DNA from: a virus
Length of the DNA: 35,026 nucleotides
IMG/VR virus record: IMGVR_UViG_3300045988_156067
Strand: one strand, 5' to 3'
This document shows, in pieces, positions 1,068 through 34,770 of the stretch. How positions within the stretch are numbered: the first letter of the stretch is position 1; every line of letters starts with the position of its first letter. Made by a program: the position numbers and the translations under genes. The notes under the pieces were generated by a model. The model saw only the letters and a list, made by a program, of their open reading frames with translations, searched no databases and was not told where the DNA came from.

Positions 1068-1096
1068 TTGACAAACAGAAAAAAGTGTGTTATAAT
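1068..1096 (+). promoter_or_regulatory. Early rightward promoter: TTGACA-17 bp-TGtTATAAT (extended -10)
   Basis: TTGACA at 1068..1073 and TATAAT at 1091..1096 with a 17-bp spacer; a TG sits at 1088..1089. Confidence 0.75.
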
Positions 1097-8484: not shown

Positions 8485-9195
8485 ATGCTGGAAAGCGGTT
8501 ATATTAAGCTATATCGGTCACTTTTAAACTGGGAGTGGTACGATGACATCAACACAAAAACGGTCTTTCTGCATCTGCTGTTGACCGTCAACATAGCAAA
8601 AAGACAATGGCACGGAATCAGCGTGCCTTGTGGCGGTCGGGTTTCCAGCTATGCGGTTCTGGCAGAGGAAACGAAGCTGACAGAAAGGCAAGTCCGAACT
8701 GCAATAAAGCACCTAGAAACGACAGGCGAAGTGACAAGGTACAAATACCACAAATTTACCGTATTTGCTATAAATAATTACGACAAGTATCAATTAGTGA
8801 CAGGCAAAGCGACAGAGTGGCGACAGGGTGATGACAAGGTAGCGACAGGGCAGCGACAACAGAATAAGAAGATAGAAGAAGATAAAGAAGATATCTATCT
8901 ATCTATCTTAGATGCAGAAAGCCAAAATTTTCCTCCAACGCTGGAAGAAATCCGGTTATTTGCAGAGCAAGAGAAAATCCGGATTGACGTGCAAAAGTTT
9001 TATGACTATTACACGGAAAGAGATTGGAAGACGAAAAACGGGAATTTTATCCGAAATTGGAAAAAGACACTGCAATATTGGGGTGAAACAGAGGGAACGC
9101 CACACAAAGGAAAAAAGCAGCAACAAGAAACACCAGTATCAGAAAACGCTGAAGCTTATGCAAGCCTGATTTTAAACTTGGATGAGCCGATATAA
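8485..9195 (+). CDS. Replication initiator/replisome-organiser-like protein (winged-helix N-terminal domain)
   Basis: GYIKLYRSLLNWEWY...LTERQVRTAIKHLETTGEV, and at the C-terminus FYDYYTERDWKTKNGNFIRNWKKTLQYW, resemble phage replication organisers. It lies after ssb and contains an internal iteron array. Confidence 0.65.
   Translation: MLESGYIKLYRSLLNWEWYDDINTKTVFLHLLLTVNIAKRQWHGISVPCGGRVSSYAVLAEETKLTERQVRTAIKHLETTGEVTRYKYHKFTVFAINNYDKYQLVTGKATEWRQGDDKVATGQRQQNKKIEEDKEDIYLSILDAESQNFPPTLEEIRLFAEQEKIRIDVQKFYDYYTERDWKTKNGNFIRNWKKTLQYWGETEGTPHKGKKQQQETPVSENAEAYASLILNLDEPI
8797..8865. repeat. Six phased iterons with core GCGACAG at 11-bp spacing
   Basis: GACA cores begin at 8799, 8811, 8822, 8833, 8844 and 8855. 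The units are gtGACAggcaaa, gcGACAgagtg, gcGACAgggtg, atGACAaggta, gcGACAgggca and gcGACAacaga. Confidence 0.85.
8893..8908. repeat. (ATCT)4 microsatellite following a purine/A-rich tract
   Basis: atctatctatctatct is read directly. It is preceded by aataagaagatagaagaagataaagaagat. Confidence 0.9.
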
Positions 9196-9206
9196 TGGAG
9201 GTTATT

Positions 9207-9809
9207 ATGAAATATTCTGAAGATTTGCAAATGCAGATTGCATTTGAACACTATGTAGATTGTGAGAGCATCGCCAAGCTGGGCGACCGGTATGAAATTC
9301 CGTCCGATACGGTTTACAGATTCTGTAGAGAACATCGGGGCGAGTTTCGGGACGCTATCGTGCGGAACTGGAAGCGGAGCGAGAAGCGAATGAGAAGAGC
9401 AGTTGCCGACTATCGAAACGGGGAAACCGTGGACTTTATCCGATGCAAGTATCACATCGGCACGACTTCCCTATATCGGGCACTCAGTGCAAAAAGTGCC
9501 TCTTATCTTACGAACCCGCCAGTATTCACAGAAGAAGAGCTTACAAAGGCGAAAGCGGTCTCCTACTTTGGAGATTGGAAAACGGAAATTTTGTCGATGG
9601 ATGCACAGAAAAAGCCCTTGTATGGCATCTATAACCCTGGGAATGGAACATGGTTGCAACGGCTCTGTCATGGTGGAATCATGCGACCATGGCTATATTC
9701 AACGATGTATGGGGCGAATGCGAAGCTGGCACAAGTGAAAAAGCTACGGGGATTACATAACATCGGAGCGGCTGAACTGAAAGTGCAGTGGTATGGATGG
9801 AAGCAGTGA
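9207..9809 (+). CDS. Hypothetical DNA-binding protein with two HTH-like segments
   Basis: ESIAKLGDRYEIPSDTVYRF and VDFIRCKYHIGTTSLYRAL are the HTH-like segments. The C-terminus GIYNPGNGTWLQRLCHGG is vaguely AP2-like. GGAGG lies 5 nt upstream of the ATG at 9207. Confidence 0.5.
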   Translation: MKYSEDLQMQIAFEHYVDCESIAKLGDRYEIPSDTVYRFCREHRGEFRDAIVRNWKRSEKRMRRAVADYRNGETVDFIRCKYHIGTTSLYRALSAKSASYLTNPPVFTEEELTKAKAVSYFGDWKTEILSMDAQKKPLYGIYNPGNGTWLQRLCHGGIMRPWLYSTMYGANAKLAQVKKLRGLHNIGAAELKVQWYGWKQ

Positions 9810-9811
9810 CG

Positions 9812-10330
9812 ATGGGAAAAGAATTGAAAGATTGGTATGCCCAGCATGGGATTTGTGTAAGTTGTGGGCAAGAAAAAGCTGCACCCAACAGAAAGGAATG
9901 CTTTGCATGCTTAGAAAAAAGAGTTGAACGAAATATGAAATACTATCACAGTATGTCAGAAGAACAAAAGCAAGCACGGAACGAAAAGCTAAGAAAACAA
10001 TATGCAGAGCGAAAAGCTGCTGGAAAATGCACACGCTGCGGAAAAAAGCCGGCAGCATCTGGAAGAGCCATGTGCGTGATGTGTGCAAAGCAGGATGCAA
10101 ACAGGCATATGGAAAAGAGACGGGAAAACGGGGTTTTGCCAAGATATATGTTTGGCGATGGCTACCACTGTGTAACCTGTGGCAAGGATATTGATAACGG
10201 CAAAAAGCAGTGTGATGAGTGCTATAGCAAATCTGTACATGCAATGGAGATTGCAAGAGGAAAAATAAAAGGTGGTTTTAGAAGCCAGAGGCTTGTGCTT
10301 GGTAAAACGGGAAGGAAGACAGGAACATGA
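9812..10330 (+). CDS. Triple zinc-ribbon protein, paralogue of the gene at 4477..4806
   Basis: WYAQHGICVSCG...CFAC...SEEQKQ...CTRCGKK...CVMC...CVTCG...CDEC. The start is uncertain (9788 or 9812). Confidence 0.6.
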   Translation: MGKELKDWYAQHGICVSCGQEKAAPNRKECFACLEKRVERNMKYYHSMSEEQKQARNEKLRKQYAERKAAGKCTRCGKKPAASGRAMCVMCAKQDANRHMEKRRENGVLPRYMFGDGYHCVTCGKDIDNGKKQCDECYSKSVHAMEIARGKIKGGFRSQRLVLGKTGRKTGT

Positions 10331-10528: not shown

Positions 10529-10726
10529 ATGAAAGTCCAATCAAGATTGAAGCCATGCCCGTTCTGCGGCAATAAGAATGTAAAGCAGGTGACAGCACCT
10601 TTGAGAGGTACACAGATGTTTATCTGTAACGTGTGCGGTGCGGATGTTTGCTTTTTTGGAGCGGAATATGATGTGAAAGCAAGAATCGCATGGAATCGGA
10701 GAAGTGAAACGGAGGAATCAGAATGA
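10529..10726 (+). CDS. Lar-family restriction-alleviation-like zinc-ribbon protein
   Basis: LKPCPFCGNKNV......FICNVCGADV......ARIAWNRR matches the Lar-family pattern CPFCG...C..CG...A...WNRR. Confidence 0.7.
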   Translation: MKVQSRLKPCPFCGNKNVKQVTAPLRGTQMFICNVCGADVCFFGAEYDVKARIAWNRRSETEESE

Positions 10727-11229
10727 ACGACATCGAAAAGAAACTGGAAGCCCTGAAAGCGAAATTTTTGGAAAAGCTGGAAGAACTGCAAAAAGAAGCA
10801 GAGGCACAGAAGGAACAGGAAGAGTTGAAGCCGTGGAAGCCGGAAACTGAAGAACAATACTTTTTTGTCAAAGATAGCTTTTATGCGAGCGGCTATTGGA
10901 ACGAAAATGACGAAGTGGATAATCATAATTTTGAAATTGGAAACTGTTTTCGCACAAAAGAACGTGCCGAGGAAGTCGCAAAGAAAATGCGGTTGCTGTT
11001 ACGGTTGGAACAATTGCATGATATGCTCTGCCCAGACTATGTGCCGGATTTTGGAAGCGGAGAAGCAACGTATTGCCTTTATTATGATTACAGTAGCAGC
11101 CGCTGGGCTGTTGAAGGCTGGTATGATTGCAATTGCCGCGTTAATGGCCCTTATTTCGACACCGAAGAAAACGCTGAAAAAGCAGCGGAAATCCTAAACA
11201 AAGAATTGACTTCACGAAGATTCGGCTGA
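10723..11229 (+). CDS. Hypothetical protein with an N-terminal coiled coil
   Basis: 168-aa track ORF with an ATGA overlap to the previous gene. I recognise no family. Confidence 0.6.
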   Translation: MNDIEKKLEALKAKFLEKLEELQKEAEAQKEQEELKPWKPETEEQYFFVKDSFYASGYWNENDEVDNHNFEIGNCFRTKERAEEVAKKMRLLLRLEQLHDMLCPDYVPDFGSGEATYCLYYDYSSSRWAVEGWYDCNCRVNGPYFDTEENAEKAAEILNKELTSRRFG

Positions 11230-11242
11230 AAACAAAGGAGAA

Positions 11243-11653
11243 ATGAGGATGACTTTAGAAACATTACAGCAATGCCGTAACGCTGCACATGCACTACAGA
11301 AAGCACAGAAAGCAATTAACATGCATGAATCTGGTGCCGGCTGCATTAGCGGTATGCACTACGGTGACATGCCAAGAGGGCGAGGCGAGCCAATTTCTTC
11401 CCAAGAAGCCTACGTAGAGAAGAAGGAACGTCTGGAAGAAGAACTGAATCAGAAAAAGACAATGTATCAGAATCTGAAATGTGAAGTCTTGCATGCAGTA
11501 TCCAGCCTGACAAGGTTACAACGGCAATTGATTTGCGGATACTATGTGCATGGGCACTCCTGGGATACTGTCAACAGAATCTGTGGAGTAAAGCGGCAGC
11601 AGTCCATCTATCAAGTTCGAAAAGCCTTTGATAAAATTTTGGAAAGGGCTTGA
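11243..11653 (+). CDS. Late-gene regulator candidate with a sigma-70 region-4-like HTH (ArpU/RinA/DUF1492-type position)
   Basis: The C-terminus LTRLQRQLICGYYVHGHSWDTVNRICGVKRQQSIYQVRKAFDKI resembles sigma region 4. It is the last gene before terS. The ATG at 11249 is better spaced from the AAGGAG SD. Confidence 0.6.
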   Translation: MRMTLETLQQCRNAAHALQKAQKAINMHESGAGCISGMHYGDMPRGRGEPISSQEAYVEKKERLEEELNQKKTMYQNLKCEVLHAVSSLTRLQRQLICGYYVHGHSWDTVNRICGVKRQQSIYQVRKAFDKILERA

Positions 11654-11678
11654 CATTCAACATCGTTTGTGCTATAAT
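11650..11678 (+). promoter_or_regulatory. Consensus promoter TTGACA-17 bp-TGcTATAAT upstream of the packaging genes
   Basis: TTGACA at 11650..11655 overlaps the regulator stop codon. TATAAT is at 11673..11678 and a TG at 11670..11671. Confidence 0.7.
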
Positions 11679-11697
11679 TGCTAACATAGATTATTGT

Positions 11698-11729
11698 GCC
11701 TGATGGTGTAACGCCATCGGGCATTTTTT
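11698..11729 (+). terminator. Intrinsic terminator in the late leader (9-bp stem with one G.U pair, followed by a U6 run)
   Basis: GCCTGATGG at 11698..11706 pairs with CCATCGGGC at 11714..11722, followed by ATTTTTTA. Confidence 0.7.
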
Positions 11730-11754
11730 ATACCTGAAAAACGGAGGGAGGACG

Positions 11755-12240
11755 TTGGCAAATGAAGAAAACCTGATTCCGATGGACGAACGAACAGAGA
11801 ACGAACAAAGAGAAATTGCAAGAAAAGGTGGCAAAAAGTCCGGAGAAGCACGCCGCAGAAAAAAAGACATGAAAGCCAAAATGAAGTTGCTGCTTTCCCT
11901 GCAGCCGACCGCCAGCCAAACAGAATTGTTGAAAGCACTTGGCATTCCGGAAGAGGACGCAGATAATGAAATGCTGCTGCTGGTTGCCATGTTTCAGGCT
12001 GCCACGGAAGACCGAGATACCAAAGCATTTGATAAGGTCATGGACGTACTTGGAAAGACCGTACAACGGGAAGAACTGACCTTGAAAAAGCGGCAGGCGG
12101 CGAAGCAAGACAAGCCGAGCAACGGCATGACGGAACAGCTGATTGCAGGAATGCAGGAACAGGGGGCGGAAGATGATTTACACGAAGAAGCAGCGGCAAT
12201 TGATGGAACTGTGGCGAACAAAGAAGTTGCAGCGGATTAA
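11755..12240 (+). CDS. terS: Terminase small subunit (TTG start)
   Basis: It lies immediately upstream of, and overlapping, terL. The N-terminus is NLIPMDERTENEQREIARKGGKKSGEARRRKK. A GGAGGGAGGA SD lies 2 nt before the TTG at 11755. No in-frame ATG alternative exists near the SD. Confidence 0.7.
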   Translation: MANEENLIPMDERTENEQREIARKGGKKSGEARRRKKDMKAKMKLLLSLQPTASQTELLKALGIPEEDADNEMLLLVAMFQAATEDRDTKAFDKVMDVLGKTVQREELTLKKRQAAKQDKPSNGMTEQLIAGMQEQGAEDDLHEEAAAIDGTVANKEVAAD

Positions 12241-14728: not shown

Positions 14729-16034
14729 TACCTACTGGAGCAAGCGGCTGCAAGAATTGGATGCCTCTTTAAGCAAAGACGAAAAGCAGCTCTTCTCGGA
14801 GTTATCAAAATACTATGAACAGGAATATGCAGCACTGGACAAAGAAATCGCAGCGTACTATGCAAAATATGGTGAAGAGAATGTGATTGCCTTCCGAACA
14901 TTGCTGCTAGAATTACCGGATGCAGACAAGCAACTGCTGCTGCAAAACATGGATGAATTTGCAAAGCAATATCCAGAGTTTGCCGAACTGCTCCCTGTTC
15001 GGGAAAGCATTTACAAACTGAACCGCTTGGAAGGCTTACAAACTTCCAGCGTGTTGCAGCAGTTGAAAATCGGAGCGATTGAGCAAACGAAATTTCGAGA
15101 ACACTTTGAGAAACAGGTGTTGAAATATGCAAACTATGCAGCGGAGAAGTTGGGATTCGGGACGAATTTTTACCGGATTGATAGCGAGATGCTGCAAGTT
15201 GTGATTGGAAATCCTTGGTGTAATGGCAAAGATTTTTCTGAACGGATTTGGGCAAACCGAGAAGCCTTAGCACAGACTTTACAAAACGAGATTGCAAACG
15301 GTCTGATTCGTGGTGAAGATTATAGGACCATGTCAAGAATCTTGCAGCAGAAGTTTGAAAATACATCGCAGAAGCAAGCAGAACGGCTGGTTTTTACAGA
15401 AGATACGTACTTATCCAATGAAGCGAAAATTCGACCATTTGAACGGAATGCAGCTTATACGCATTATGAATATCTCTGTGTAGAAGACCACCGCACCTGT
15501 GAAACTTGCCGTGCGTTGAGTGGACAGACATTTGAAATCAGCAAACGGAATGCCGGCTTGAATTTCCCACCGATGCACCCTTGGTGCAGATGTACCGTTA
15601 TGCCGGTGGTCGAGGATTTGGCGACGATAAAGAGGCGGTTGAACGCCGATTCTGGAAGTGGAAAATCAGATGCAATTTTATTGACAGATACGCAGAAAGA
15701 TGGTATAATAAAAACAGATGAAAGATTTGAGATTCATCCAGATAAAATAAAAAAGTTTTTGTTGAAACCAGGTGCGAAGCATTCAAAAGAATTTTTTGAT
15801 GTTGGCTATACACCTGATGATTATGAGTTGCTTTTCGATGACATCGCATTGAATTTCAATATGGAAACAGCTTTTGCACGCATAGAAAAGCCAGATGGTT
15901 CTATTGATTTTTGTATGTATATGGATTTGGGAGTAACAAAAAAGAGAAATTTTAAAGTAGTTTGGAAAAAAGATAATTCAGAAAGTAAGCCACGATTGAT
16001 TACAGCTCATCGAGAAGGGAAAAAACATGTTTGA
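14718..16034 (+). CDS. MuF/SPP1 gp7-family head morphogenesis protein fused to an extra ~124-aa C-terminal domain (DUF6883-like by recollection)
   Basis: The MuF core signature is CVEDHRTCETCRALSGQTFE...NFPPMHPWCRCTVMPV, ending near 15610. A linker ADSGSGKS follows, then an AT-rich extension: HPDKIKKFLLKPGAKHSKEFFDVGYTPDDYELL...VVWKKDNSESKPRLITAHRE. Confidence 0.88.
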   Translation: MQSDTYWSKRLQELDASLSKDEKQLFSELSKYYEQEYAALDKEIAAYYAKYGEENVIAFRTLLLELPDADKQLLLQNMDEFAKQYPEFAELLPVRESIYKLNRLEGLQTSSVLQQLKIGAIEQTKFREHFEKQVLKYANYAAEKLGFGTNFYRIDSEMLQVVIGNPWCNGKDFSERIWANREALAQTLQNEIANGLIRGEDYRTMSRILQQKFENTSQKQAERLVFTEDTYLSNEAKIRPFERNAAYTHYEYLCVEDHRTCETCRALSGQTFEISKRNAGLNFPPMHPWCRCTVMPVVEDLATIKRRLNADSGSGKSDAILLTDTQKDGIIKTDERFEIHPDKIKKFLLKPGAKHSKEFFDVGYTPDDYELLFDDIALNFNMETAFARIEKPDGSIDFCMYMDLGVTKKRNFKVVWKKDNSESKPRLITAHREGKKHV

Positions 16035-16230
16035 ATTATTTGAAAAAGTTTTAATAAAAGAAAAGAATATTCCTGGCACAATTGTGGACATTACAACGAT
16101 AAAAGGTAAGAAAATAATTACAGTTGAAAGTGATATAGAAGGAAAACAAGAAGGCGGTTATGGCGAGCGTTTTCCTTTGTTTACATGCTATGAAAATCAA
16201 CTGCAACGCTTAACCACAAACAAGAAGTAA
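16027..16230 (+). CDS. Small protein translationally coupled to the MuF C-terminal domain (DUF4926-like SH3-type fold by recollection); candidate immunity/partner protein
   Basis: 67 aa, MFELFEKVLIKEKNIPGTIVDITTIKGKKIITVESD.... Its ATG lies 8 nt before the MuF stop. It has the same very low G+C as the MuF extension. Confidence 0.7.
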   Translation: MFELFEKVLIKEKNIPGTIVDITTIKGKKIITVESDIEGKQEGGYGERFPLFTCYENQLQRLTTNKK

Positions 16231-16247
16231 AATTTTGAGGTGATTAT

Positions 16248-16601
16248 ATGGCGAAAGATGATATGGAAATTATCATGTACAAAATTCTCAAATATCTATA
16301 TGAGTGCCTGAAATCCGGAAGAAAAACATCGATTGCAGATGTTGCATGGGAATGTCGCCTGTTCCATATTACAAGAACATACTGGCTTGTAATTATGCGA
16401 GAATTGATTGAATCCGGATATGTTTCTGGCATTCAGTACATTGCCGCAAAGGATATGGAACAGATTTTAGAAGTCGGTACGTTTTCAATTACGAAAGCAG
16501 GCAGAGAATATTTGTCCCAAAACAGCATGATGCAGAAAGCAAAGGAATTTCTTGGGAAACCATTTGAGATTCTTCTTGGTGCTGTAATTGGAAGACTATA
16601 A
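16248..16601 (+). CDS. YjcQ-like winged-helix protein
   Basis: IIMYKILKYLYE...LIESGYVSGI...ITKAGREYLSQNS resembles the Bacillus prophage YjcQ family layout. A TGAGGTGA SD is present. Confidence 0.6.
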   Translation: MAKDDMEIIMYKILKYLYECLKSGRKTSIADVAWECRLFHITRTYWLVIMRELIESGYVSGIQYIAAKDMEQILEVGTFSITKAGREYLSQNSMMQKAKEFLGKPFEILLGAVIGRL

Positions 16602-16638
16602 GAACAGAATATTTACAAAAAAGAATCATTTTTATAAA

Positions 16639-16662
16639 AGCATCTCTCTGAGGTGCTTTTTT
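16639..16662 (+). terminator. Intrinsic terminator (7-bp stem, T6 run); copy 1 of the repeated terminator cassette
   Basis: AGCATCT-ctctg-AGGTGCT followed by TTTTT. The sequence aggtgcttttttcatgcccgaaa recurs at 17055..17077 with one mismatch. Confidence 0.65.
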
Positions 16663-16683
16663 CATGCCCGAAAGGAGAAAAAT

Positions 16684-16947
16684 ATGGAAACAAGCAAACC
16701 AGCAGAATTGAAAGATACAGTAAGTATGATGGGCAGCACAGACTATAAGGAACGCTTTAAGGCGGAGTATATACAGGTGGCTATCCGGTATCGAAAGCTG
16801 AAATGCATGCTTGCCAGATGGGACAAGGGAAAGCTAAACTTTTATCCAACTTGCCCGAGAAGCATTTATGATTTGCAGATTAGAGCGATGGCAGACTATA
16901 TCACCGCTCTGGAAGCCCGTGCAGCAATCGAAAATATCATACTTTAA
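16684..16947 (+). CDS. Conserved small phage protein of unknown function (87 aa)
   Basis: Internal ATG of track ORF 16588, with an AAAGGAGAAAAAT SD. ERFKAEYIQVAIRYRKLKCMLARWDKGKLNF.P.CP...L..Q...M..Y...LE.RA is a pattern I recall from many Firmicutes/crAss-like phage hypotheticals. Confidence 0.65.
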   Translation: METSKPAELKDTVSMMGSTDYKERFKAEYIQVAIRYRKLKCMLARWDKGKLNFYPTCPRSIYDLQIRAMADYITALEARAAIENIIL

Positions 16948-17039
16948 TCACCGCCCCGACCATGGGCAAAAACTGGCGGAGGGACGGAAACCAAGAACAA
17001 ACAAGCCTGTGGGTACGGCGTTCTTTCTATCAACAAATC

Positions 17040-17066
17040 AGCATCTGAGCAATCAGGTGCTTTTTT
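17040..17066 (+). terminator. Intrinsic terminator (9-bp stem, GCAA tetraloop, T6 run); copy 2 of the repeated cassette
   Basis: AGCATCTGA-gcaa-TCAGGTGCT followed by TTTTT. Confidence 0.7.
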
Positions 17067-17095
17067 CATACCCGAAAACAGAAAGGAGCAATCTT

Positions 17096-17365
17096 ATGCA
17101 GCTTCTCTTTTTTCATGCGAACTACTGCCCGCCCTGCAAGCAAATGCAGCCGGTGGCAGAGCAATATGCAGCCCAGACCGGCATTCCGTTGTACACCTTC
17201 CGATCAGATGATGTGTACGGCGGAAATGCCATGGCACGGCAGCACCATGTGAAACGCCTTCCCTGCTTGATTCTTCTGGATGATGATGGCAGAGAACAGG
17301 CTAGAACCGAAGCCGTCCAAACGCTGGAAGGGTTGCGGAAGGTATTTGAAAGGAGTGAATCATAA
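17096..17365 (+). CDS. Thioredoxin-fold protein with a CPPC active site (89 aa)
   Basis: MQLLFFHANYCPPCKQMQPV...VKRLPCLILLDDDG shows a thioredoxin-like beta-alpha-beta start, a CxxC motif and a cis-Pro region. An AAAGGAG SD is present. Its stop overlaps the scaffold start (TAATG). Confidence 0.8.
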   Translation: MQLLFFHANYCPPCKQMQPVAEQYAAQTGIPLYTFRSDDVYGGNAMARQHHVKRLPCLILLDDDGREQARTEAVQTLEGLRKVFERSES

Positions 17366-17901
17366 TGGCAGACAGTACAGAACAGGTTACAACAACCGAA
17401 ACGCCTGTTACGCCGACAGAACCGGCAACGGAGCCTTCTACTTTGACCGCAGAAGCGGTTTCGCAGATGATTGCGGAAGCGTTCCAAGGCTTTGAGCAGC
17501 GGCAGTCAGAAGCAAAGAAACTATCAGAAATGACCGACCAGCAGCGAGCAGAAACGGAGCGGGATTCCTACAAGCAGCAGCTCCATGCCCTGCAAAAGCA
17601 GGTGGAAGCGGCACAAATGCAGAAAACCGCACGGGAAATGCTATCCGAAAAAGGCATTCATTTGCCGGATTCTCTGGTAGCTGCCGTGGTTGCAGAGGAC
17701 GCAAAGACCACCAAAACACAGGTGGAAGCTTTTGCAACGCTGTTTACAGAAGCGGTAGAAAACGCCGTCAAGGAACGCTTAAAGGGCGAACCGCCCAAGA
17801 CCGGAGCGTCAGGACGCATGACGAAAGAACAGATTTTCGCCATTCCTGATGAAGGAAAACGGTTACAGGCGATTCGGGACAACATGAATTTATTTGAGTA
17901 A
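17365..17901 (+). CDS. Capsid scaffolding protein (DUF4355-like)
   Basis: It lies before the capsid gene. It has a low-complexity T/E/P N-terminus, is predicted to be coiled-coil rich, and ends MTKEQIFAIPDEGKRLQAIRDNMNLFE. Confidence 0.85.
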   Translation: MADSTEQVTTTETPVTPTEPATEPSTLTAEAVSQMIAEAFQGFEQRQSEAKKLSEMTDQQRAETERDSYKQQLHALQKQVEAAQMQKTAREMLSEKGIHLPDSLVAAVVAEDAKTTKTQVEAFATLFTEAVENAVKERLKGEPPKTGASGRMTKEQIFAIPDEGKRLQAIRDNMNLFE

Positions 17902-17916
17902 AGGAGTTAATTTATT

Positions 17917-18792
17917 ATGGCAGTACAAGCAAATACCAATTTGACCACCGATTTTGCCAAGGCACAGTCGATTGATTTTACCAATCGCTTTGTCGATGGC
18001 ATCCAGAAATTGCAGGAACTTCTCGGCATTACCAGACGTACGGCAATGGCGAACGGTTCTATCATCAAAGTATACAAAAACAAGGTAACCATGGCGAATG
18101 GAGACGTTGCAGAAGGCGACTTGATTCCGCTGTCCAAGGTGGAAGTAGAGCTGGCAAATACCTATGAACTGGCTTACAAGAAGTACCGGAAGGCAGTAAC
18201 GCTGGAAGCCATCCAACGCAGCGGCTTTGACCTTGCGGTTTCGCAGGCAGACAATGAGTTGTTGAAACAGATTCAGAGCAACATTCGCTCCTCTTTGGTG
18301 ACGTTTTTGGCAACTGGTACTGGTACAGCAACCGGCACTGGCTTTCAAGCCGCCGTAGCAGATGCTTGGGGAAAGTTGCAGGTACTCTTTGAGAATGATG
18401 CAACCGATGGCGTGATTGTGATTGCAAATCCGCAGGATATTTCAAAATATCTTGGGGAGCAGACCAACATTACCACGCAGACTGCTTTTGGCATGACGTA
18501 TTTCCAGACATTTTTGGATGTCAAAGTCATGTCGAACTCCAGTGTTCCGGCAGGAACATTCTATGCAACCGTTGCCGATAACCTGAATCTGGCATATCCG
18601 GCAATCTCCGGCGGGGAAATCAACAAGGCATTCAGCTTTACAACAGATGCAACAGGACTGGTTGGCATTACCCACACCGCAGATTATACGCGTGCAAACT
18701 ATGAGACCACGATTTTAACGGGGTCTGTACTGTTTGCAGAGCGGCTGGACGGCGTCATTGTTGGCACGATTGCTGGCACGACTGGAGCGTAA
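17917..18792 (+). CDS. Major capsid protein
   Basis: 291 aa, immediately after the scaffold gene, with a strong AAGGAG SD. The call rests on synteny; I cannot verify the fold by eye. Confidence 0.82.
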   Translation: MAVQANTNLTTDFAKAQSIDFTNRFVDGIQKLQELLGITRRTAMANGSIIKVYKNKVTMANGDVAEGDLIPLSKVEVELANTYELAYKKYRKAVTLEAIQRSGFDLAVSQADNELLKQIQSNIRSSLVTFLATGTGTATGTGFQAAVADAWGKLQVLFENDATDGVIVIANPQDISKYLGEQTNITTQTAFGMTYFQTFLDVKVMSNSSVPAGTFYATVADNLNLAYPAISGGEINKAFSFTTDATGLVGITHTADYTRANYETTILTGSVLFAERLDGVIVGTIAGTTGA

Positions 18793-18794
18793 GC

Positions 18795-19127
18795 ATGACG
18801 CTACTGGAGCGGGTACAGATTCGATTGCAGGATGAACCGAAAGCGGAGAACACACCGCAATTGCTAGAGCTTTGCGATATTGCAAGCTTGCGAATCTGCT
18901 TGCGAGTGCGAGAAACAACGCTGCCGGAAATGTTAGAACCGATTGCAGCGGAAGTCGTGGTCAAGCTGTTTCGACGTTGGAATTATGAGGGCATTCGTTC
19001 TGAAGGAGCGGATACAATTTCCACTACGTTTGTGGAAGATGTTCTGGCGGAATACGAAGATGAGTTTACCGCTTATCGAGAAACCAAGGCGGCGGAAAAC
19101 GGCAGCGGCACGGTTCATTTTTTGTGA
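18795..19127 (+). CDS. Head-tail connector (gp6-like DNA-packaging/adaptor protein)
   Basis: Called from size, position and the N-terminal pattern MTLLERVQIRLQD......LLELCDIASLRICL. Confidence 0.6.
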   Translation: MTLLERVQIRLQDEPKAENTPQLLELCDIASLRICLRVRETTLPEMLEPIAAEVVVKLFRRWNYEGIRSEGADTISTTFVEDVLAEYEDEFTAYRETKAAENGSGTVHFL

Positions 19128-19142
19128 TAGGAGGCAGCAACC

Positions 19143-19490
19143 ATGCACTATTTCCCCATTCATCTCTTAAAAGCCATCCAGACCGGAACAGATATTTTAG
19201 GCAATCCTATTACTACATTACAAGAGCCTTGTGCAGCTTGTAATGGGTATACAGGACGATTCACAGAATGGACGGCAGAGGATGCGGAGCTAGTCGGGCG
19301 AGATGTTACCCAAACGCAGCGAAAACTGTTGACAGATGCTCCGCTGGCACGCTGTAAAGAAGCAGATGTGGTGCGTGCTGGTTCGGAAGACTATCGGATT
19401 ACTTCCATCAAAGATTTGCATGGGCGGTGGCGGATGTTGTATCTGGAACGATGGTATCAAACCCTCCCAGAACGGAGATGCACAACGTGA
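19143..19490 (+). CDS. Head closure / head-tail joining protein
   Basis: Called from synteny only. Confidence 0.5.
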   Translation: MHYFPIHLLKAIQTGTDILGNPITTLQEPCAACNGYTGRFTEWTAEDAELVGRDVTQTQRKLLTDAPLARCKEADVVRAGSEDYRITSIKDLHGRWRMLYLERWYQTLPERRCTT

Positions 19491-19888
19491 AAATCAAAAT
19501 CATTCTAAACGGAACAGAAGAGTTAGTTGCTGCACTGGAGCAAAAATCAAAATCGGATTTCGTTGCAGTTTGTAACCGAACCGTTGGCTTGTTGACACGG
19601 GAAGCAACGAGAAACACGCCTGCTGATACAGGAAAGCTGCGGCAGAGCATCCGAACTGAATTGCCGAAAGAATCGGATACTACCATCAATGGAGCGGTCG
19701 GCTACACGCTGCACTATGCACCCCATGTAGAATATGGGCATCGGCAGCAGCCGGGACGATTCGTTCCACAGATTGGGAAACGACTGAAAGCCTCCTATGT
19801 TCCGGGGCAACGGTTTTTGCAGCGTTCTGTAGAAGCCGTTCGCCCTCAATTTGAACAGATGCTAAAAGATGAGCTAAAGGAGGACTGA
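19478..19888 (+). CDS. HK97 gp10-family tail-completion protein
   Basis: TRNTPADTGKLRQSIRTE...VGYTLHYAPHVEYGH is the gp10 signature. The alternative GTG start at 19487 forms a GTGA overlap with the previous stop. Confidence 0.75.
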   Translation: MHNVKIKIILNGTEELVAALEQKSKSDFVAVCNRTVGLLTREATRNTPADTGKLRQSIRTELPKESDTTINGAVGYTLHYAPHVEYGHRQQPGRFVPQIGKRLKASYVPGQRFLQRSVEAVRPQFEQMLKDELKED

Positions 19889-19895
19889 GGTCAGA

Positions 19896-20309
19896 ATGAT
19901 GCTGCGAAAAGCCGGCTTTGCGGAGATTGCCGCTGCTGTGCTGCAAAATCTCCGGAAAAATACCGGTTATGCTTGTTATGATGCTGTGGAGAAGGACACC
20001 CCTTCTCCATTTCTATTTGTAGAGATGGTCGGAAAACGGGATGCTTCCAGTAAAACGATGTTCAAGGAAATTTTTACCGTACAGATTCATGCGATTGCAA
20101 CACCGAGCGATGCCAGAACAGAAATTTACAGCATGATACAGTCGGTAGAAGAATCGTTGACGGAATCCATCATGCTTCCGGACGGAATTACACTGGTGCT
20201 GCAAACAGAAACCGGTGTGCAGTCTTTGCAGCAGGACGAAACAAACGAATATCATGCCGTGATTTCCTATGAAATCATGGTGAGTTATGGATTGAAATGT
20301 AAGATTTAG
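19896..20309 (+). CDS. Tail terminator / tail-completion protein candidate
   Basis: Called from synteny, between the gp10-like gene and the major tail protein gene. Confidence 0.5.
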   Translation: MMLRKAGFAEIAAAVLQNLRKNTGYACYDAVEKDTPSPFLFVEMVGKRDASSKTMFKEIFTVQIHAIATPSDARTEIYSMIQSVEESLTESIMLPDGITLVLQTETGVQSLQQDETNEYHAVISYEIMVSYGLKCKI

Positions 20310-20320
20310 GAGGAAATACG

Positions 20321-20836
20321 ATGTCAAGTTATGATAACAATTTTTACTGTGATTTTTCAGAAGATGCGGCAAAAGCCGGGAAGGACATTCTGCTTTGCAT
20401 CTACAACGCAGACGGTTCCAAGCTGCTTGCAATTTCAGGGCAGCAGAATTTAACCATTAACCGCAGTGCTGACACGGTGGAAGTGTCCAGCAAAGACACA
20501 AAAGGCGGCTGGAAAAAACAGATTCCCGGCATGAAAGAATGGTCGATTGACAACGATGGTATTTACATTCTGAATGCAGAATCGCACAAGCTGCTCGGGC
20601 AATATTTTGAGAACGGCGATATGGTCTGCTTGAAGGTCATTGATGCCAAGGAGAAAAAGCCGCTGTTTGGCGGTCTGGCTTGCATTACAGACTATTCGCT
20701 GGAAGCTCCATACGATGACAGCATGACCTATTCTTTGAGCTTTTCTGGCAACGGTGCTTTAACAGACTTAACAAATCTCTCCACGGAAGATGCTACAAAG
20801 GTAACGGATATGCCGGAAGATTTGACAACGGAATAA
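20321..20836 (+). CDS. Major tail protein (phi13/Phage_tail_2-like)
   Basis: GQQNLTINRSADTVEVSSKDTKGGWKKQIPGMKEWSIDNDGIY....FGGLACITDYSLEAPYDDSMTYSLSFSGNGAL fits the family pattern. Confidence 0.85.
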   Translation: MSSYDNNFYCDFSEDAAKAGKDILLCIYNADGSKLLAISGQQNLTINRSADTVEVSSKDTKGGWKKQIPGMKEWSIDNDGIYILNAESHKLLGQYFENGDMVCLKVIDAKEKKPLFGGLACITDYSLEAPYDDSMTYSLSFSGNGALTDLTNLSTEDATKVTDMPEDLTTE

Positions 20837-20846
20837 GGAGGAACTT

Positions 20847-21158
20847 ATGCAAACCTATTTTATCAAAGACAAAGAATATCACTTGCATTACACCATCGGC
20901 AGAATGGAGCAGTTGGAAAAGATACTTGGAAATGCCATTACTGGCGTGATGGTTTCCATCACAAATGGAAAATATCCAACCATTTCCGAACTCTGCACGC
21001 TGTTTGCTTACGGCTTGTCAGATGACCGAGGGGACTATGCTCCTATCAAGAAGGCTCTGGAATTTGCCCAGCAGCAGGTACAGGATGTTGGATATGGTAC
21101 ACTGTTTACAGCAACGCTGGAACAGATTCAGGAGGACTGCGGTTTTTTATTCCGGTAA
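20847..21158 (+). CDS. Tail assembly chaperone (gpG-like)
   Basis: It lies after the major tail gene and has a slippery heptamer 7 nt before its stop. Confidence 0.75.
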   Translation: MQTYFIKDKEYHLHYTIGRMEQLEKILGNAITGVMVSITNGKYPTISELCTLFAYGLSDDRGDYAPIKKALEFAQQQVQDVGYGTLFTATLEQIQEDCGFLFR

Positions 21159-21571
21159 GGCTGGTGGAATGGGAATATTTTCCGACCAGTAAAGAAAAGC
21201 CTGACCTAGAAGCGGAACAGTTCCGAAAAAGCCAAGATTTCGCTTTTTTTGCGGTACAATTCGGCTATTCCAAAGCAGATTACAACGCCCTGACCGAAAC
21301 GGAACGGGCGTTGATTTTAAAAGCGTATGAAAACAAAGTCGTAGCAGATACCAACCTTTTGGCAGGTGCGGTTCTAAATGCAGTTTCCAATGCGTTCCGG
21401 AAAAAGGGTAAAAAGCCGCAGAAGCTCTGGAAAAAGCAGCCGAAGCATACCAACAAAGAACGACAGCAACAGCTCGTGCAGCAGGTTCTGGAAGCCGATG
21501 CAGCACAAGGAACGGCATGGGTAGAAGCGATTTACAAAGCAAACGGGCGGAAACGAAAGAAGGTGTCGTGA
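20847..21571 (+). CDS. Frameshifted chaperone fusion (gpGT-like), joined at 21143..21149
   Basis: Track ORF 21164..21571 lies in the -1 frame relative to 20847..21158 (20847 mod 3 = 0, 21164 mod 3 = 2). No stop separates the slip site from it. Confidence 0.65.
21143..21149 (+). promoter_or_regulatory. -1 programmed ribosomal frameshift site T_TTT_TTA
   Basis: The zero-frame codons are ggT TTT TTA (G F L). The -1 frame is open from 21143 through 21571. Confidence 0.7.
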
Positions 21572-22402
21572 TTGGAGTTTTATGGTATCGAGGAACGAAA
21601 AACCGGAATTCGGTGGATTCAATCCCATCAATTACAATATATCAGTGCAGAACAGCCTTATGCAGAAGCGAACGTTGGCATCTACACTGGAAGAACCAAT
21701 GGTGGCTATGGATTGGGGCTATATTGGACGGATTTTTCTGCCACTGCCCCAGAAGTAGAAACATTTACCGTAGATATTCCAGGGCGAAACGGGTTACTGG
21801 ATTATTCTGAAGCTTTGACTGGCTCTCCGGTTTACAAGAATGCAACGCTATTTGCAACATTTGTGGCAGCTTGTACGATGGCAGAATGGCACAAGCTCTA
21901 TCAAAACATCCGGCAAGAGTTGCACGGGCAAGTTTGTACCATTGTTGCAGACAGCAATTCCAGCTATGCCTATCGTGGACGCTGCACCGTAGATTCCACC
22001 ATGGAAGATGCCAAGCATGCTGTTTTCACCATTTCCGCCGATATAGAGCCGTATTGCTATGATAATTTTCCATTGCAAAAGGGATTCCTTTGGGATGCGA
22101 CCGATTTTTCCGGAAGCCTTCCGGATGCACTGACACTGAGCGAATCTGGAGAAATTACAGAAACACTGTATGCTCCGAATGGCAGGGTTGGTGGACTTTA
22201 TGGAGAGGTTACAGTCATTGCAGAATTTCCTTGCACGGTAACCATCAACGGAACTGCTAAAGAAATCGAAGAAGCAAACGGGAAAGCGGTGTTTTCTATC
22301 AGCTCTTATTTACAGCACAACAGCAGCGTGACGGTTACAATCACCGGAGGCACTGCCGGAAGCCAAATTGCAATTCTATGCAGATGCAGGAGGTTGTTAT
22401 AA
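21572..22402 (+). CDS. Distal tail protein (Dit/Sipho_tail-like), TTG start
   Basis: VDIPGRNGLLDYSEALTG..VYKNATLFATFV......IVADSNSSYAYRGRC resembles Dit N-terminal domains. A GAAGGTG SD lies about 8 nt upstream of the TTG. Confidence 0.65.
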   Translation: MEFYGIEERKTGIRWIQSHQLQYISAEQPYAEANVGIYTGRTNGGYGLGLYWTDFSATAPEVETFTVDIPGRNGLLDYSEALTGSPVYKNATLFATFVAACTMAEWHKLYQNIRQELHGQVCTIVADSNSSYAYRGRCTVDSTMEDAKHAVFTISADIEPYCYDNFPLQKGFLWDATDFSGSLPDALTLSESGEITETLYAPNGRVGGLYGEVTVIAEFPCTVTINGTAKEIEEANGKAVFSISSYLQHNSSVTVTITGGTAGSQIAILCRCRRLL

Positions 22403-23967
22403 TGTATACAGCCTATTACTTTCCATTTGAAAATTGCAGGGACGGAATTATTCCGAGATTGCCACTGTTTGACCCGAAGAATGGCTATTTTCTGAAAGAT
22501 GCGGTTTTGAAAACGAGTGCAACCAAAGCAGGCAAATTTACTTTTACCATCCCAGTAGACGATGAACGAGTACTACAGGTTTTACAGTGCTGGGTTACTG
22601 TCGTATCTGATAATGTGCGGCGGCACGATGAAGACACTGTGGGTGAAAATGTGATATGGGTTGGACGACCGACACAAGTAGAGCGAGATTTGTATGGGAA
22701 TCGAACATACACCTGCGAAGGCGTTCTGGGAATGCTAAATGATACGGTATGCGTTGCAAAGCCATATCCCTCTATTTATAACAGTATCCCAGATTTTATC
22801 AATTTTCTTGTATTCTCCCTCTGGACGGATTATCAATGCTATACAGCAGCAGTAGATGCAAACACAGACGCAAGCACCGTGTTCCGAAACGGAACATGGT
22901 ACAGCTATGACGGCAAAAAAATTCTCTACAAAGAAACGAAAATTCCAGAAGGTGCTAAAGTTTGCGTCCCGCAGGTGGACTACAATAACGGATATTATCT
23001 GAGTAGCGTGGTCTATGAAGATTCTGCCTGCAAAACAAAAGTTTTGAAACCAGATGGCAACGGATTTTACTACATAGACAACATTTCTTTTGTACGATAT
23101 TGGACACAAGCAGAAACAGCAATGGAGCTATTACAGTCTCGAATTATCGACTATTTTGGCGGCAATTTTCAAGCAGAAGTTGTAGACCCATACACGCAAA
23201 AAGAACCACTGACAGACGTTCTGCACACTGGCTGCATTCGGTACGCTTATCGAGACCCAAGCAATCATACAATTAAGACACAAAAGCTGGAACTTGGCGG
23301 CAATATCACAGATGTTTCTTCTTCTTATATAGCAGAAGATTTTTATACTGGAATTGTTCCAGTGTCGAGTTCTAATGCGGATAACACTACTGGAGAATCG
23401 GACGCTACGGAAACAATGATTTATCCAGAGGCGACGGAATCCGACTTCGATAGTGATGGCAACCGAAAAATAGATATAAAGCCATACGCAGCATTCAGTT
23501 TTTATGGTGGAAATGATACGGAAATTACACCGAGCAATCTCGTTGTTTGGTTCACCGGCGGGAAGTTCGGAGATTATTATATGTCAAATCGTGAATATCC
23601 AGCATCACGAGCTTTCAATCAATATTTGCTGAACAAATACGGACCAATTGTCCGAAAAGTGAACTTCTCGTTTAGCGAGAATAACCCAGATAAATATACC
23701 AAACGAGAAGCCGTGGTTGCCCATGTACTGGCGTTGGAAGAACCCAAAGCAACTTTTTCCGTATCCGCAGTAGATTTGGGACTAGTGGAAGATGGTGTGG
23801 AGTGCTTGCAGGCTGGTTTTCAAGTGGAAGTGGTTTATACGCCACTTGGGATTGACGAACGGATGACGATTGAAGAATTGGAAATCCATCTGGATGACCC
23901 AACGCAGTGCAAGGTAACACTGAACGGCTCTTTGGATTCGATTGCAAAAATAGTAGCGAGGGGGTGA
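22402..23967 (+). CDS. Tail-associated protein (Tal / prophage-tail N-terminal domain-like)
   Basis: The N-terminus LKDAVLKTSATKAGKFTFTIPVDDERVLQVLQCWVTVV...VERDLYGNRTYTCEGVLGML resembles Tal/gp27-like N-termini. A GCAGGAGG SD and a TAATG overlap are present. Confidence 0.6.
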   Translation: MYTAYYFPFENCRDGIIPRLPLFDPKNGYFLKDAVLKTSATKAGKFTFTIPVDDERVLQVLQCWVTVVSDNVRRHDEDTVGENVIWVGRPTQVERDLYGNRTYTCEGVLGMLNDTVCVAKPYPSIYNSIPDFINFLVFSLWTDYQCYTAAVDANTDASTVFRNGTWYSYDGKKILYKETKIPEGAKVCVPQVDYNNGYYLSSVVYEDSACKTKVLKPDGNGFYYIDNISFVRYWTQAETAMELLQSRIIDYFGGNFQAEVVDPYTQKEPLTDVLHTGCIRYAYRDPSNHTIKTQKLELGGNITDVSSSYIAEDFYTGIVPVSSSNADNTTGESDATETMIYPEATESDFDSDGNRKIDIKPYAAFSFYGGNDTEITPSNLVVWFTGGKFGDYYMSNREYPASRAFNQYLLNKYGPIVRKVNFSFSENNPDKYTKREAVVAHVLALEEPKATFSVSAVDLGLVEDGVECLQAGFQVEVVYTPLGIDERMTIEELEIHLDDPTQCKVTLNGSLDSIAKIVARG

Positions 23968-23971
23968 GTGT

Positions 23972-31155: not shown

Positions 31156-31353
31156 ATGTACATAAGATATACAAATTATAAAACAGGAATGCAACTCGGA
31201 GAAAATGACAGCGTTTTGATGTCATTGCAAGAATTTTTAGACGGCGGAAAAGATTTGGAGGACGTGCCGGTTACGATTACGCCGGACGGAGAACCACCGA
31301 CGGAAGAAACGGAAGAAGAACCTGATGTCAGTGAAGAGGAGGCGGCCGAATGA
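31156..31353 (+). CDS. Small acidic hypothetical protein upstream of the holin
   Basis: Internal ATG of track ORF 31087, with an AAGGAGAG SD. The C-terminus is EPPTEETEEEPDVSEEEAAE. Confidence 0.55.
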   Translation: MYIRYTNYKTGMQLGENDSVLMSLQEFLDGGKDLEDVPVTITPDGEPPTEETEEEPDVSEEEAAE

Positions 31354-31760
31354 AAGAATGGATTTGTGCAGCAGCCGGAACGGTCGGCGGTCTGATTGCT
31401 GGACTGTTTGGGGGATGGGATGCGGCGATCAGAGCCTTACTGGTTTTTATGGCGATTGATTACCTGATGGGGTTAGCTTGTGCAGGGATTTTTCAAAAAT
31501 CCCCGAAAACAGAATCAGGCGGCTTACAATCTAAAGTTGGCTGGAAAGGTTTGTGCCGTAAGGTTGCAACGCTTGCACTTGTTGTGGTTGCCGTGCAGGT
31601 GGACGCTGTCCTGCATACGTCCTACGTGAGAGATGGCGTTTGTATCGCATTTATGGCAAACGAGTTGATTTCAATGGTTGAAAACGTGGGATTGATGGGT
31701 GTGCAGTTCCCCGAACCACTCCGAAAAGCGATTGATTTGTTACAGAAAAAGGACAAATAA
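31350..31760 (+). CDS. Holin (Phage_holin_4_1 / TcdE-like family)
   Basis: It has three hydrophobic helices, the conserved MAIDYLMG...S.VGWKGL.RKV and MANELISMVENVGLMGV motifs, and sits directly upstream of the endolysin. Confidence 0.9.
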   Translation: MKEWICAAAGTVGGLIAGLFGGWDAAIRALLVFMAIDYLMGLACAGIFQKSPKTESGGLQSKVGWKGLCRKVATLALVVVAVQVDAVLHTSYVRDGVCIAFMANELISMVENVGLMGVQFPEPLRKAIDLLQKKDK

Positions 31761-34684: not shown

Positions 34685-34712
34685 AATAGTTCCCTCTTGC
34701 CGCTTCACGGTT

Positions 34713-34737
34713 GCCGCCGTGGGGCGGCTTTTTTTTT
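34713..34737 (+). terminator. Strong + strand intrinsic terminator (GCCGCC-gtgg-GGCGGC followed by T9)
   Basis: Read directly. On the minus strand the hairpin is preceded rather than followed by the homopolymer run, so it should not stop immA-to-int read-through. Confidence 0.75.
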
Positions 34738-34770
34738 CATTTTCGTGACCTCACGAGAATGATTGCTTTT

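Follow-up and report, generated by a model that had tools for sequence, protein, structure and literature searches.

How does a prophage of a gut bacterium keep its late genes silent and then open them? The question is raised by the virus record IMGVR_UViG_3300045988_156067, a nearly complete temperate phage of a gut Firmicute and a gut-Clostridia prophage; the whole stretch of 35,026 nucleotides that we analysed is called the window here. The junction between its early and late genes is the exact site of a cassette in which a consensus promoter, placed directly behind the gene for a sigma-region-4-like regulator, is followed by an intrinsic terminator and only then by the first late gene (Table 1). 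We propose that the late operon is controlled by promoter-proximal antitermination at this cassette, through a promoter-loaded antiterminator of the Q or AlpA type that is probably the adjacent sigma-4-like protein, and from the sequence features described below we give this reading a probability of roughly 0.55. What the DNA itself shows is which elements are present, how they are ordered and conserved, and that no alternative promoter exists; from this we infer constitutive initiation, termination, the identity of the antiterminator and its loading site.

The late promoter matches the consensus at 12 of 12 positions and carries an extended −10 element, the last three bases of its 17-nt spacer being TGC. 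A preliminary description of this DNA had placed TTGACA-17-TGcTATAAT across the stop codon of the regulator gene, and our analysis agrees, with the TGA lying inside the −35 hexamer. Transcription is predicted to start at A11686, or alternatively at A11684, and the terminated RNA would be 42-47 nt long. The hairpin that follows pairs 11696-11708 with 11712-11724 and folds at −20.6 kcal/mol (z = −6.5), a value reached by 0 of 200 shuffled sequences. It has the GC-rich stem, short loop and adjoining U-tract on the transcribed strand that define intrinsic terminators. The opposite strand reaches only −12.4 kcal/mol because the three G.U pairs turn into A.C mismatches. The terminator, ending at 11729, thus stands as first described, and its stem is corrected from 9 to 13 bp. 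The Shine-Dalgarno (SD) sequence and the TTG start at 11755 were likewise recovered, and relatives carrying ATG at the same position (such as L009) back this start. The name terS given to the first late gene holds for its position only: the gene matches phrog_2412, a family of unknown function, and lies directly 5' of TerL, the next gene, which matches Terminase_6N.

Neither the window nor its relatives have room for a second promoter past the hairpin or a conserved −10 there. Every late transcript, whether started at the consensus promoter or running on from the early operon, must therefore cross the terminator, as also follows from the distance of only 13 nt between T-tract and SD. Because a consensus −35, a 17-nt spacer and a TGn −10 need no activator, the adjacent regulator more likely acts after initiation.

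To compare this arrangement with that of relatives, loci were gathered in five ways: from close regulator homologues in viral contigs, from contigs encoding homologues of decreasing identity, by a scan for the hairpin only, with clade-specific protein alignments (used instead of a 28-sequence alignment that was too divergent for finding loci) and from annotated phage genomes. The resulting 53 loci hold 42 distinct intergenic sequences and represent 12 regulator clusters at 70% identity, with proteins 26-96% identical to that of the window; L041, whose regulator is frameshifted, was left out of the analysed loci. A search of genome contigs returned one near-identical contig, from a metagenome-assembled genome.

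All 42 sequences showed the same order of regulator stop, TGnTATAAT, leader, hairpin, T-run, SD and first late gene, so that the promoter invariably preceded the terminator. The TGnTATAAT element was always present, began 15-46 nt past the regulator stop and read TGCTATAAT in 37 of the 42. Between the −10 and the hairpin lay an A/T-rich leader of 16-25 nt, and the GC-rich hairpin itself (−14 to −22 kcal/mol) was found throughout and was followed by a run of 5-8 T in 41 sequences. The SD was located 14-20 nt past the computed 3' end of the hairpin in 37 sequences and 30 nt past it in one; no match to the SD core was found in four. The −35 was variable, reading TTGACA or TTGACT in the clade of the window and TTGTTT or TTGAAT at 18-nt spacing elsewhere, and it was missing in some loci. 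The earlier proposal that the promoter looks constitutive and that the terminator is the gate thus has strong comparative support (42 sequences, 12 clusters), and it is the mechanism that we infer. A plainer reading offered at the same time, that the hairpin is simply the terminator of the early operon, leaves unexplained the constant position of the only late promoter before this hairpin, at which early transcripts probably end as well.

The hairpins came in 22 sequence variants belonging to at least five unrelated classes, and their stems stayed paired through double changes. At core positions 5 and 6, A-U/U-G exchanges with U-G/A-U, and between the window and L006 a U-A pair is exchanged for C-G. 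These pairs were counted by register, as the MAFFT/RNAalifold consensus recovered just 6 pairs because stem lengths differ. Wobbles with U on the 5' side and G on the 3' side outnumbered the reverse orientation by 24 to 6, from which it follows that the structure is RNA on the + strand. Closely related regulators are accompanied by hairpins with different upper stems and loops, as expected of a generic terminator. The sequence comparison indicates that selection keeps the hairpin as an RNA structure in the + strand transcript, in the role of a generic terminator.

Several other roles for the hairpin were considered and rejected. A DNA palindrome or operator does not agree with G.U pairs that become A.C on the other strand, with the variable upper stem and loop or with the kept T-tract, and a sequence-specific RNA ligand does not agree with a hairpin that is kept as a structure while its sequence varies. 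Riboswitch-like attenuation by alternative structures was dismissed because the leader has only ~10-17 nt and no competing structure was predicted. The TGTAAC within the hairpin resembles a sigma-X −35; a promoter of the extracytoplasmic function (ECF) type was rejected, as no CGTC-type −10 lies at the right spacing and TGTAAC is missing from the other hairpin classes. Stem-loops at the 5' end stabilise Bacillus mRNAs, and the hairpin lies ~10-17 nt from the predicted 5' end in all family members, so it could be imagined as a 5' stabiliser of the late mRNA against the 5'-end-dependent decay of Firmicutes and not as a functional terminator. We consider this very improbable: a stabiliser has no need of the T5-T8 that follows the stem directly in 41 of 42 sequences and is a hallmark of terminators, and in the Clostridium phage Saumur the hairpin is ~50 nt from the −10.

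The gene following the cassette varied among the loci and was phrog_2412 (terS-like), Terminase_2, an HNH gene followed by Terminase_4, or a 184-aa open reading frame (ORF). The regulator gene adjoined the cassette in every locus, whether this was found via the protein or via the hairpin alone, and the genes further 5' differed. It is the regulator that the cassette accompanies, whatever gene lies downstream. This linkage bears on which protein would open the gate. The part of antiterminator could also fall to a host factor or to a different early protein of the phage, leaving the sigma-4-like protein some other role; no sequence feature physically ties the 134-aa protein to the terminator, and several uncharacterised early genes lie upstream, including those for the zinc-ribbon and Lar-like proteins. 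None of these is invariably linked to the cassette, as the regulator alone is, and we judge their involvement improbable. The preliminary description had named the upstream protein as one possible antiterminator. It is a reasonable candidate, given its synteny everywhere and its sigma-4 fold, although it is not a Q homologue and its nearest characterised relatives are described as activators.

The regulator had been given as 136 aa long. A length of 134 aa from the ATG at 11249 is more likely: this start is preceded by an SD (AAGGAG, 11235-11240), all homologues begin with MT(L/I)ETL, and the 96%-identical cluster P0001 has 134 aa. The protein matches phrog_36, 'transcriptional regulator', at 2.5e-14. 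On its own it has no significant match in Pfam or NCBIfam, and the link to sigma region 4 comes from profiles, relatives and fold. The family profile matched only sigma region 4 chains in the PDB (E = 1e-4), Sigma70_r4_2 (PF08281) was matched by 18 of 28 family members and DUF1492 (PF07374) by 5 of 28. In an AlphaFold2 model (pLDDT 83), two long antiparallel helices (residues 3-32 and 51-84) precede a C-terminal three-helix domain, which superposes on sigma-4 domains at 1.3-1.9 Å over ~55 residues in Foldseek. The loop at the tip of the helical hairpin, GxISGMxYGDxPxGRGEP, is conserved and modelled with low confidence. As modelled, the sigma-4 fold would be suited to contacts with promoter DNA and with the beta-flap. 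No Q protein was among the Pfam, PDB-profile or Foldseek matches, and homology to Q was rejected since the PDB-profile and Foldseek matches are sigma-4 domains. Members of the narrow family are few, forming 24 clusters at 50% identity among 1.84 billion proteins. By its sequence, size, charge and position the regulator falls into the Ltr superfamily, in which LtrA corresponds to Sigma70_r4 and LtrB to DUF1492.

In the mechanism that we propose, the sigma-A RNA polymerase of the host would start constitutively at the 11650-11678 promoter (~A11686) and, in cells without a phage factor, would terminate ~45 nt on at the hairpin and T6 of 11696-11729, releasing the 42-47-nt RNA. Transcripts of the early operon would end at the same hairpin, leaving the late genes silent. 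Once the basic 134-aa sigma-4-like protein, the product of the last early gene, has accumulated, it would load onto polymerase at or near the late promoter, probably by touching both the DNA of the −35/spacer region and polymerase itself, where the beta-flap is the obvious candidate. Its sigma-4 domain may dock on the beta-flap tip, vacated by sigma-A region 4 on promoter escape, and its helical hairpin may reach toward the RNA exit channel. The polymerase modified in this way would ignore the terminator at 11696-11729 as well as internal ones at 16.6 and 17.0 kb and transcribe 11755-32962.

Both internal terminators are intergenic and come before the genes for the scaffold (17365) and the major capsid protein (17917). 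No promoter matching at 10 or more of 12 positions was found on the + strand from 17066 to 25521. The late operon of Saumur also has internal intergenic terminators. In the window, the two internal terminators would favour processive read-through. Together, those at 16638 and 17040 bracket a moron-like insert, an AT-rich block (15675-17365, 38-40% GC) placed between the head-morphogenesis and scaffold genes and equipped with a perfect promoter of its own. This block looks like lysogen-expressed morons. In lambdoid phages, late transcription tolerates moron-like inserts only because it is Q-modified.

Some side observations concern the DNA just past the late terminator. The stretch 11730-11751 (TTTTTTATACCTGAAAAACGGAGGGAGGA) is nearly identical in L045-L047, L061-L072, L029 and L044, clades whose regulators are only 26-33% identical and whose downstream genes are different, and tails resembling 'TTTTTTCATRCCCGAAA..GGAG' also follow both internal terminators and an internal terminator of Saumur. 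Possible explanations for the TTTTTTATACCTGAAAAACGGAGGGAGGA stretch are a common translation-initiation leader and a recombination junction. The segment 11724-11849, comprising T-tract, SD and the first ~95 nt of the terS-like gene, has 72-73% DNA identity to prophages of S. pyogenes and S. equi (Streptococcus phages Javan447/460/476/486/488/492/506/178) that are elsewhere unrelated to the window. Javan447 has a terminator-like hairpin with T8 directly before its terS-like gene (L023, ~2483-2505).

Ltr-superfamily proteins of Gram-positive phages (RinA, ArpU, LtrA/Sigma70_r4, LtrB/DUF1492 and LtrC) have been seen as activators of late genes since 2011-2013 (PMC3152322, PMC3753634). Quiles-Puchalt et al. 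reported that Ltr proteins are necessary and sufficient for terS expression and read them as activators, and the published layout runs from the ltr gene through a terminator and an Ltr-dependent promoter to terS (PMC3753634, PMC3152322). The window resembles these systems in having a small basic protein, encoded by the last early gene directly 5' of the packaging genes with the same synteny in relatives, in the similarity to Sigma70_r4/DUF1492, in the terminator of the ltr-terS intergenic region and, for several relatives, in repeats near the promoter. It differs from them in its order, promoter first and terminator second in all 42 sequences, and in the full sigma-A consensus that the promoter has in the window clade.

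The repeats of these relatives are direct, ~10 bp apart, and lie over or before the −35 region (L082, L048-L058, L031-L040 and L029). Among them are three copies of TGGCAC, three to four of AAGCCC and two each of GGAC and TTGGT; in the Acutalibacteraceae phage NatCom_11578, three TGGCAC repeats cover the −35 region (L082, 1912-1960). One clade has a TTTGRYACAG motif in the upstream spacer. Both the direct repeats and this motif are candidate sites for binding or loading of the regulator. Nothing comparable to the −35 direct repeats is obvious in the window itself.

Such sites also fit a regulator of the Ltr type that binds the −35/upstream region and boosts initiation. The hairpin would then be mainly the terminator of the early operon, acting as an attenuator, and late expression would come from polymerases leaking through, amplified by strong initiation and by genome replication. 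That the Ltr superfamily is described as activators, that many relatives have a weak −35 within the repeats and that the sigma-4 fold is a −35-binding module all speak for this view. However, the perfect −35/17/TGn −10 of the window clade should need no activation, and an only late promoter situated 16-25 nt before a strong terminator, as in 42 of 42 sequences, would waste most initiations, a loss that two more terminators before the capsid genes would compound. Activation of this kind therefore seems unlikely to us.

Several observations nevertheless weigh against promoter-loaded antitermination. Start site, termination and read-through are all predictions, and the regulator does not resemble Q lambda, Q21 or Q82. 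According to published work, its characterised relatives LtrA/Sigma70_r4 and LtrB/DUF1492 are activators binding to repeats in the DNA before a terS promoter, which itself follows the terminator (PMC3753634). Many family members have a poor −35 among their direct repeats (such as TTGTTT-18) or none, which fits promoter activation. Internal terminators are common in phage late operons and can act as partial attenuators. The leader has a pattern conserved in the family (TA-NN-AT-NNN-A-NN-A-N-T-G), and its conserved positions weakly suggest a sigma-dependent pause element: the A/T positions fit a −10-like hexamer ~11-16 nt past the −10, but the leader is A/T-rich and the hexamer of the window is a poor match. 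Finally, homologues at 25-35% identity show two layouts. The promoter precedes the terminator in Saumur, a relative cultured in Enterocloster clostridioformis YL32 (OMM12) and having a leader of ~50 nt, in the Acutalibacteraceae phage and in the Streptococcus uberis phage Javan630, whereas the terminator precedes the promoter in the distant homologues of C. difficile phiCDKH01 and Terrisporobacter TVCOM_ph1; phiMMP02 has an apparent terminator directly 3' of the regulator gene and lacks the cassette. Because these C. difficile and Terrisporobacter homologues have the classical order, the mechanism cannot be generalised to all homologues. The promoter-then-terminator layout is a property of a phage family mostly of the Lachnospiraceae/Oscillospiraceae type, and not of every sigma-4-like late regulator.

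The short RNA could itself be the main product of the cassette. Lysogens would then make a constitutive prophage small RNA of ~45 nt in the manner of StxS, which arises from PR'-tR' of Shiga-toxin phages as a by-product of a constitutive late promoter terminated immediately downstream in lysogeny (PMC7547250). The window RNA would likewise be the by-product of a late promoter terminated immediately downstream; it would be shorter than StxS and mostly hairpin. In addition to the StxS precedent (PMC7547250), a strong promoter with a terminator is the anatomy of a small RNA gene, the leader holds conserved positions, and the hairpin of the window clade is almost invariant though the regulators are only 51-57% identical. 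Against this, the single-stranded part has only ~10-17 nt and is A/U-rich, close relatives in other clades differ freely in upper stem and loop, and no Rfam family matched at the gathering threshold anywhere in the window. A permissive scan of 11600-11800 gave only sub-threshold, terminator-like matches, which we rejected as chance (PyrR site, 26 vs 54 bits; Qrr, 24 vs 50). A small RNA role alone would also leave late-gene transcription unexplained. We give it little credence as the main function, and it is compatible with an antitermination gate.

The closest parallels to such a gate are the Q/PR'/tR' systems of the lambdoid phages lambda, 21 and 82. There, as in the window, the regulator is the last early gene, a strong promoter (constitutive by prediction in the window) lies directly after it, and a terminator separates this promoter from the first late gene; lysogens are predicted to make a short abortive RNA, and further terminators and moron-like units lie in one long late operon. 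As far as the sequence tells, the promoter immediately 3' of the regulator gene is strong and independent of an activator, and no promoter lies behind the terminator that separates it from the first late gene. The differences are that the protein has a sigma-4 fold and belongs to none of the Q lambda, Q21 and Q82 families, that the host is a Gram-positive anaerobe, and that the terminator is much closer to the start, giving an RNA of ~45 nt. The 6S RNA of lambda has 194 nt.

A second parallel is AlpA of Pseudomonas aeruginosa, long called an activator. It was later shown to be an antiterminator that is loaded at the promoter and carries polymerase past a terminator lying just 5' of the first gene that it controls (PMC7969949). 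AlpA is small, recognises an element within the promoter, binds the beta-flap of polymerase and acts processively (PMC7969949, PMC9371919). The window regulator is, like AlpA, a small, putatively DNA-binding protein of a kind first seen as an activator, with a terminator directly before its presumed first target gene. No sequence relationship between the two was found, nor would one be expected, and the window system differs from that of AlpA in being a bona fide phage late operon.

The rinA-terS region of the S. aureus phage 80alpha (DQ517338; L075, 221-408) has TGGCAG..TGGCAG repeats and a promoter-like TTGATA-18-GATAGT (245-274) directly after rinA, and a strong terminator (336-359, with T6) ~40 nt before the ATG of terS. 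The RinA-dependent 5' end maps just past this terminator, and the sequence that RinA requires lies over 155 bp before that 5' end (PMC3152322). On sequence grounds, the 80alpha geometry would be compatible with promoter-loaded antitermination. In the literature on lambdoid Q, AlpA, conAn, Tn916 and Ltr, of which our coverage was incomplete so that the result is absence of evidence only, we found neither a promoter-proximal terminator gate before a Gram-positive phage late operon nor a description of antitermination by an Ltr or sigma-4-like protein.

Late-gene control sets when a prophage packages its DNA and lyses its host. It is understood mechanistically for lambdoid Q and only phenomenologically for the Ltr 'activators' of Gram-positive phages. 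The cassette offers a concrete, testable switch for gut Clostridia phages, with the logic of Q carried out by a different protein, and it bears on how the whole Ltr superfamily works. It would bring a new family of proteins into the short list of promoter-loaded antiterminators (Q lambda, Q21, Q82 and AlpA), and could explain why RinA binds far upstream of the mapped late 5' end. A broader and rather doubtful extension is that free-standing sigma-region-4 proteins of the Ltr superfamily are promoter-loaded processive antiterminators that replace sigma-A region 4 on the beta-flap and make polymerase lastingly resistant to terminators. If true, Q-type antitermination would have been solved here in a structurally new way, and for the first time in Gram-positive phages. 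The gate also predicts that an abundant RNA of ~45 nt marks lysogens in gut metatranscriptomes, and those who engineer anaerobic Firmicutes could use the cassette as a genetic switch that is both compact and tight.

Table 1. Predicted features of the window, in order of position.
Feature	Position	Strand	Remarks
Early region	up to 11653	+	long gene block
DnaD-like helicase loader	8485-9195		early gene 5' of regulator
Double zinc-ribbon protein	9788-10330		early gene 5' of regulator
Lar-like restriction-alleviation protein	10529-10726		early gene 5' of regulator
DUF7336/AP2-like protein	10723-11229		early gene 5' of regulator
Late regulator gene	11249-11653	+	134 aa, 15.4 kDa, pI 9.2 (9.16); alternative ATG 11243
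−35 hexamer TTGACA	11650-11655	+	regulator stop TGA at 11651-11653
Extended −10 TGcTATAAT	11670-11678	+	TGC 11670-11672, TATAAT 11673-11678
Predicted +1 and A/U-rich leader	11684-11695	+	from distance to −10 and conserved Y-A-T motif
Terminator hairpin	11696-11724	+	13-bp stem, 7 G-C, 3 G.U, loop UAA
T6 tract of terminator	11724-11729	+	
Shine-Dalgarno GGAGGGAGG	11743-11751	+	
First late gene	11755-12240	+	161 aa, TTG start, phrog_2412 at 2.8e-24
Terminase, portal and head-morphogenesis genes	from 11755		onset of late region
Late operon	11755-32962		terminase to lysis genes, ~21 kb
Promoter of AT-rich block, TTGACA-17-TGgTATAAT	15681-15709	+	perfect; inside head gene
DUF6883 domain			AT-rich block; fused to C-terminus of minor head protein
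67-aa ORF			AT-rich block
YjcQ-family gene	16248-16601		AT-rich block
Internal intergenic terminator 1	16638-16664	+	hairpin 16638-16658 + T6; −10 to −11.8 kcal/mol, z −5.8; then SD, ATG 16684
crAss001_48-like gene	16684-16947		AT-rich block
Internal intergenic terminator 2	17040-17067	+	hairpin 17040-17061 + T6; −12.2 kcal/mol, z −4.6; then SD, ATG 17096
Thioredoxin-like gene	17096-17365		AT-rich block
Scaffold gene	17365		
Major capsid gene	17917		
Holin	31350-31760		
Endolysin	31775-32962		
Serine recombinase	33116-34612	−	

The motif TTGACA-N14-TGnTATAAT occurs at 4 sites in the 35 kb, compared with 0.00 expected from 100 dinucleotide-preserving shuffles, from which we conclude that full sigma-A consensus promoters are used at few key positions. 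Apart from the late promoter, these are the internal promoter at 15681-15709(+) and two divergent switch promoters at 1005-1033(−) and 1068-1096(+), whose spacers are partly symmetrical (…ACTTTTTTGTGTG / …CAGAAAAAAGTGTG). The divergent pair (1005-1096) is presumably the lysis-lysogeny switch; the 173-aa ORF at 459-980 on the minus strand has no Pfam match. Lar-like genes such as that of the window also recur 5' of the regulator in the relatives L006 and L025.

At the end of the element, past the minus-strand recombinase gene, lies a very strong terminator on the + strand (34699-34767; 13-bp stem with 9 G-C pairs, −23.6 kcal/mol, T9), with a second hairpin immediately after it. Long-stem terminators, the type to which this one belongs, are reported to be resistant to processive antitermination (PMC10325885).

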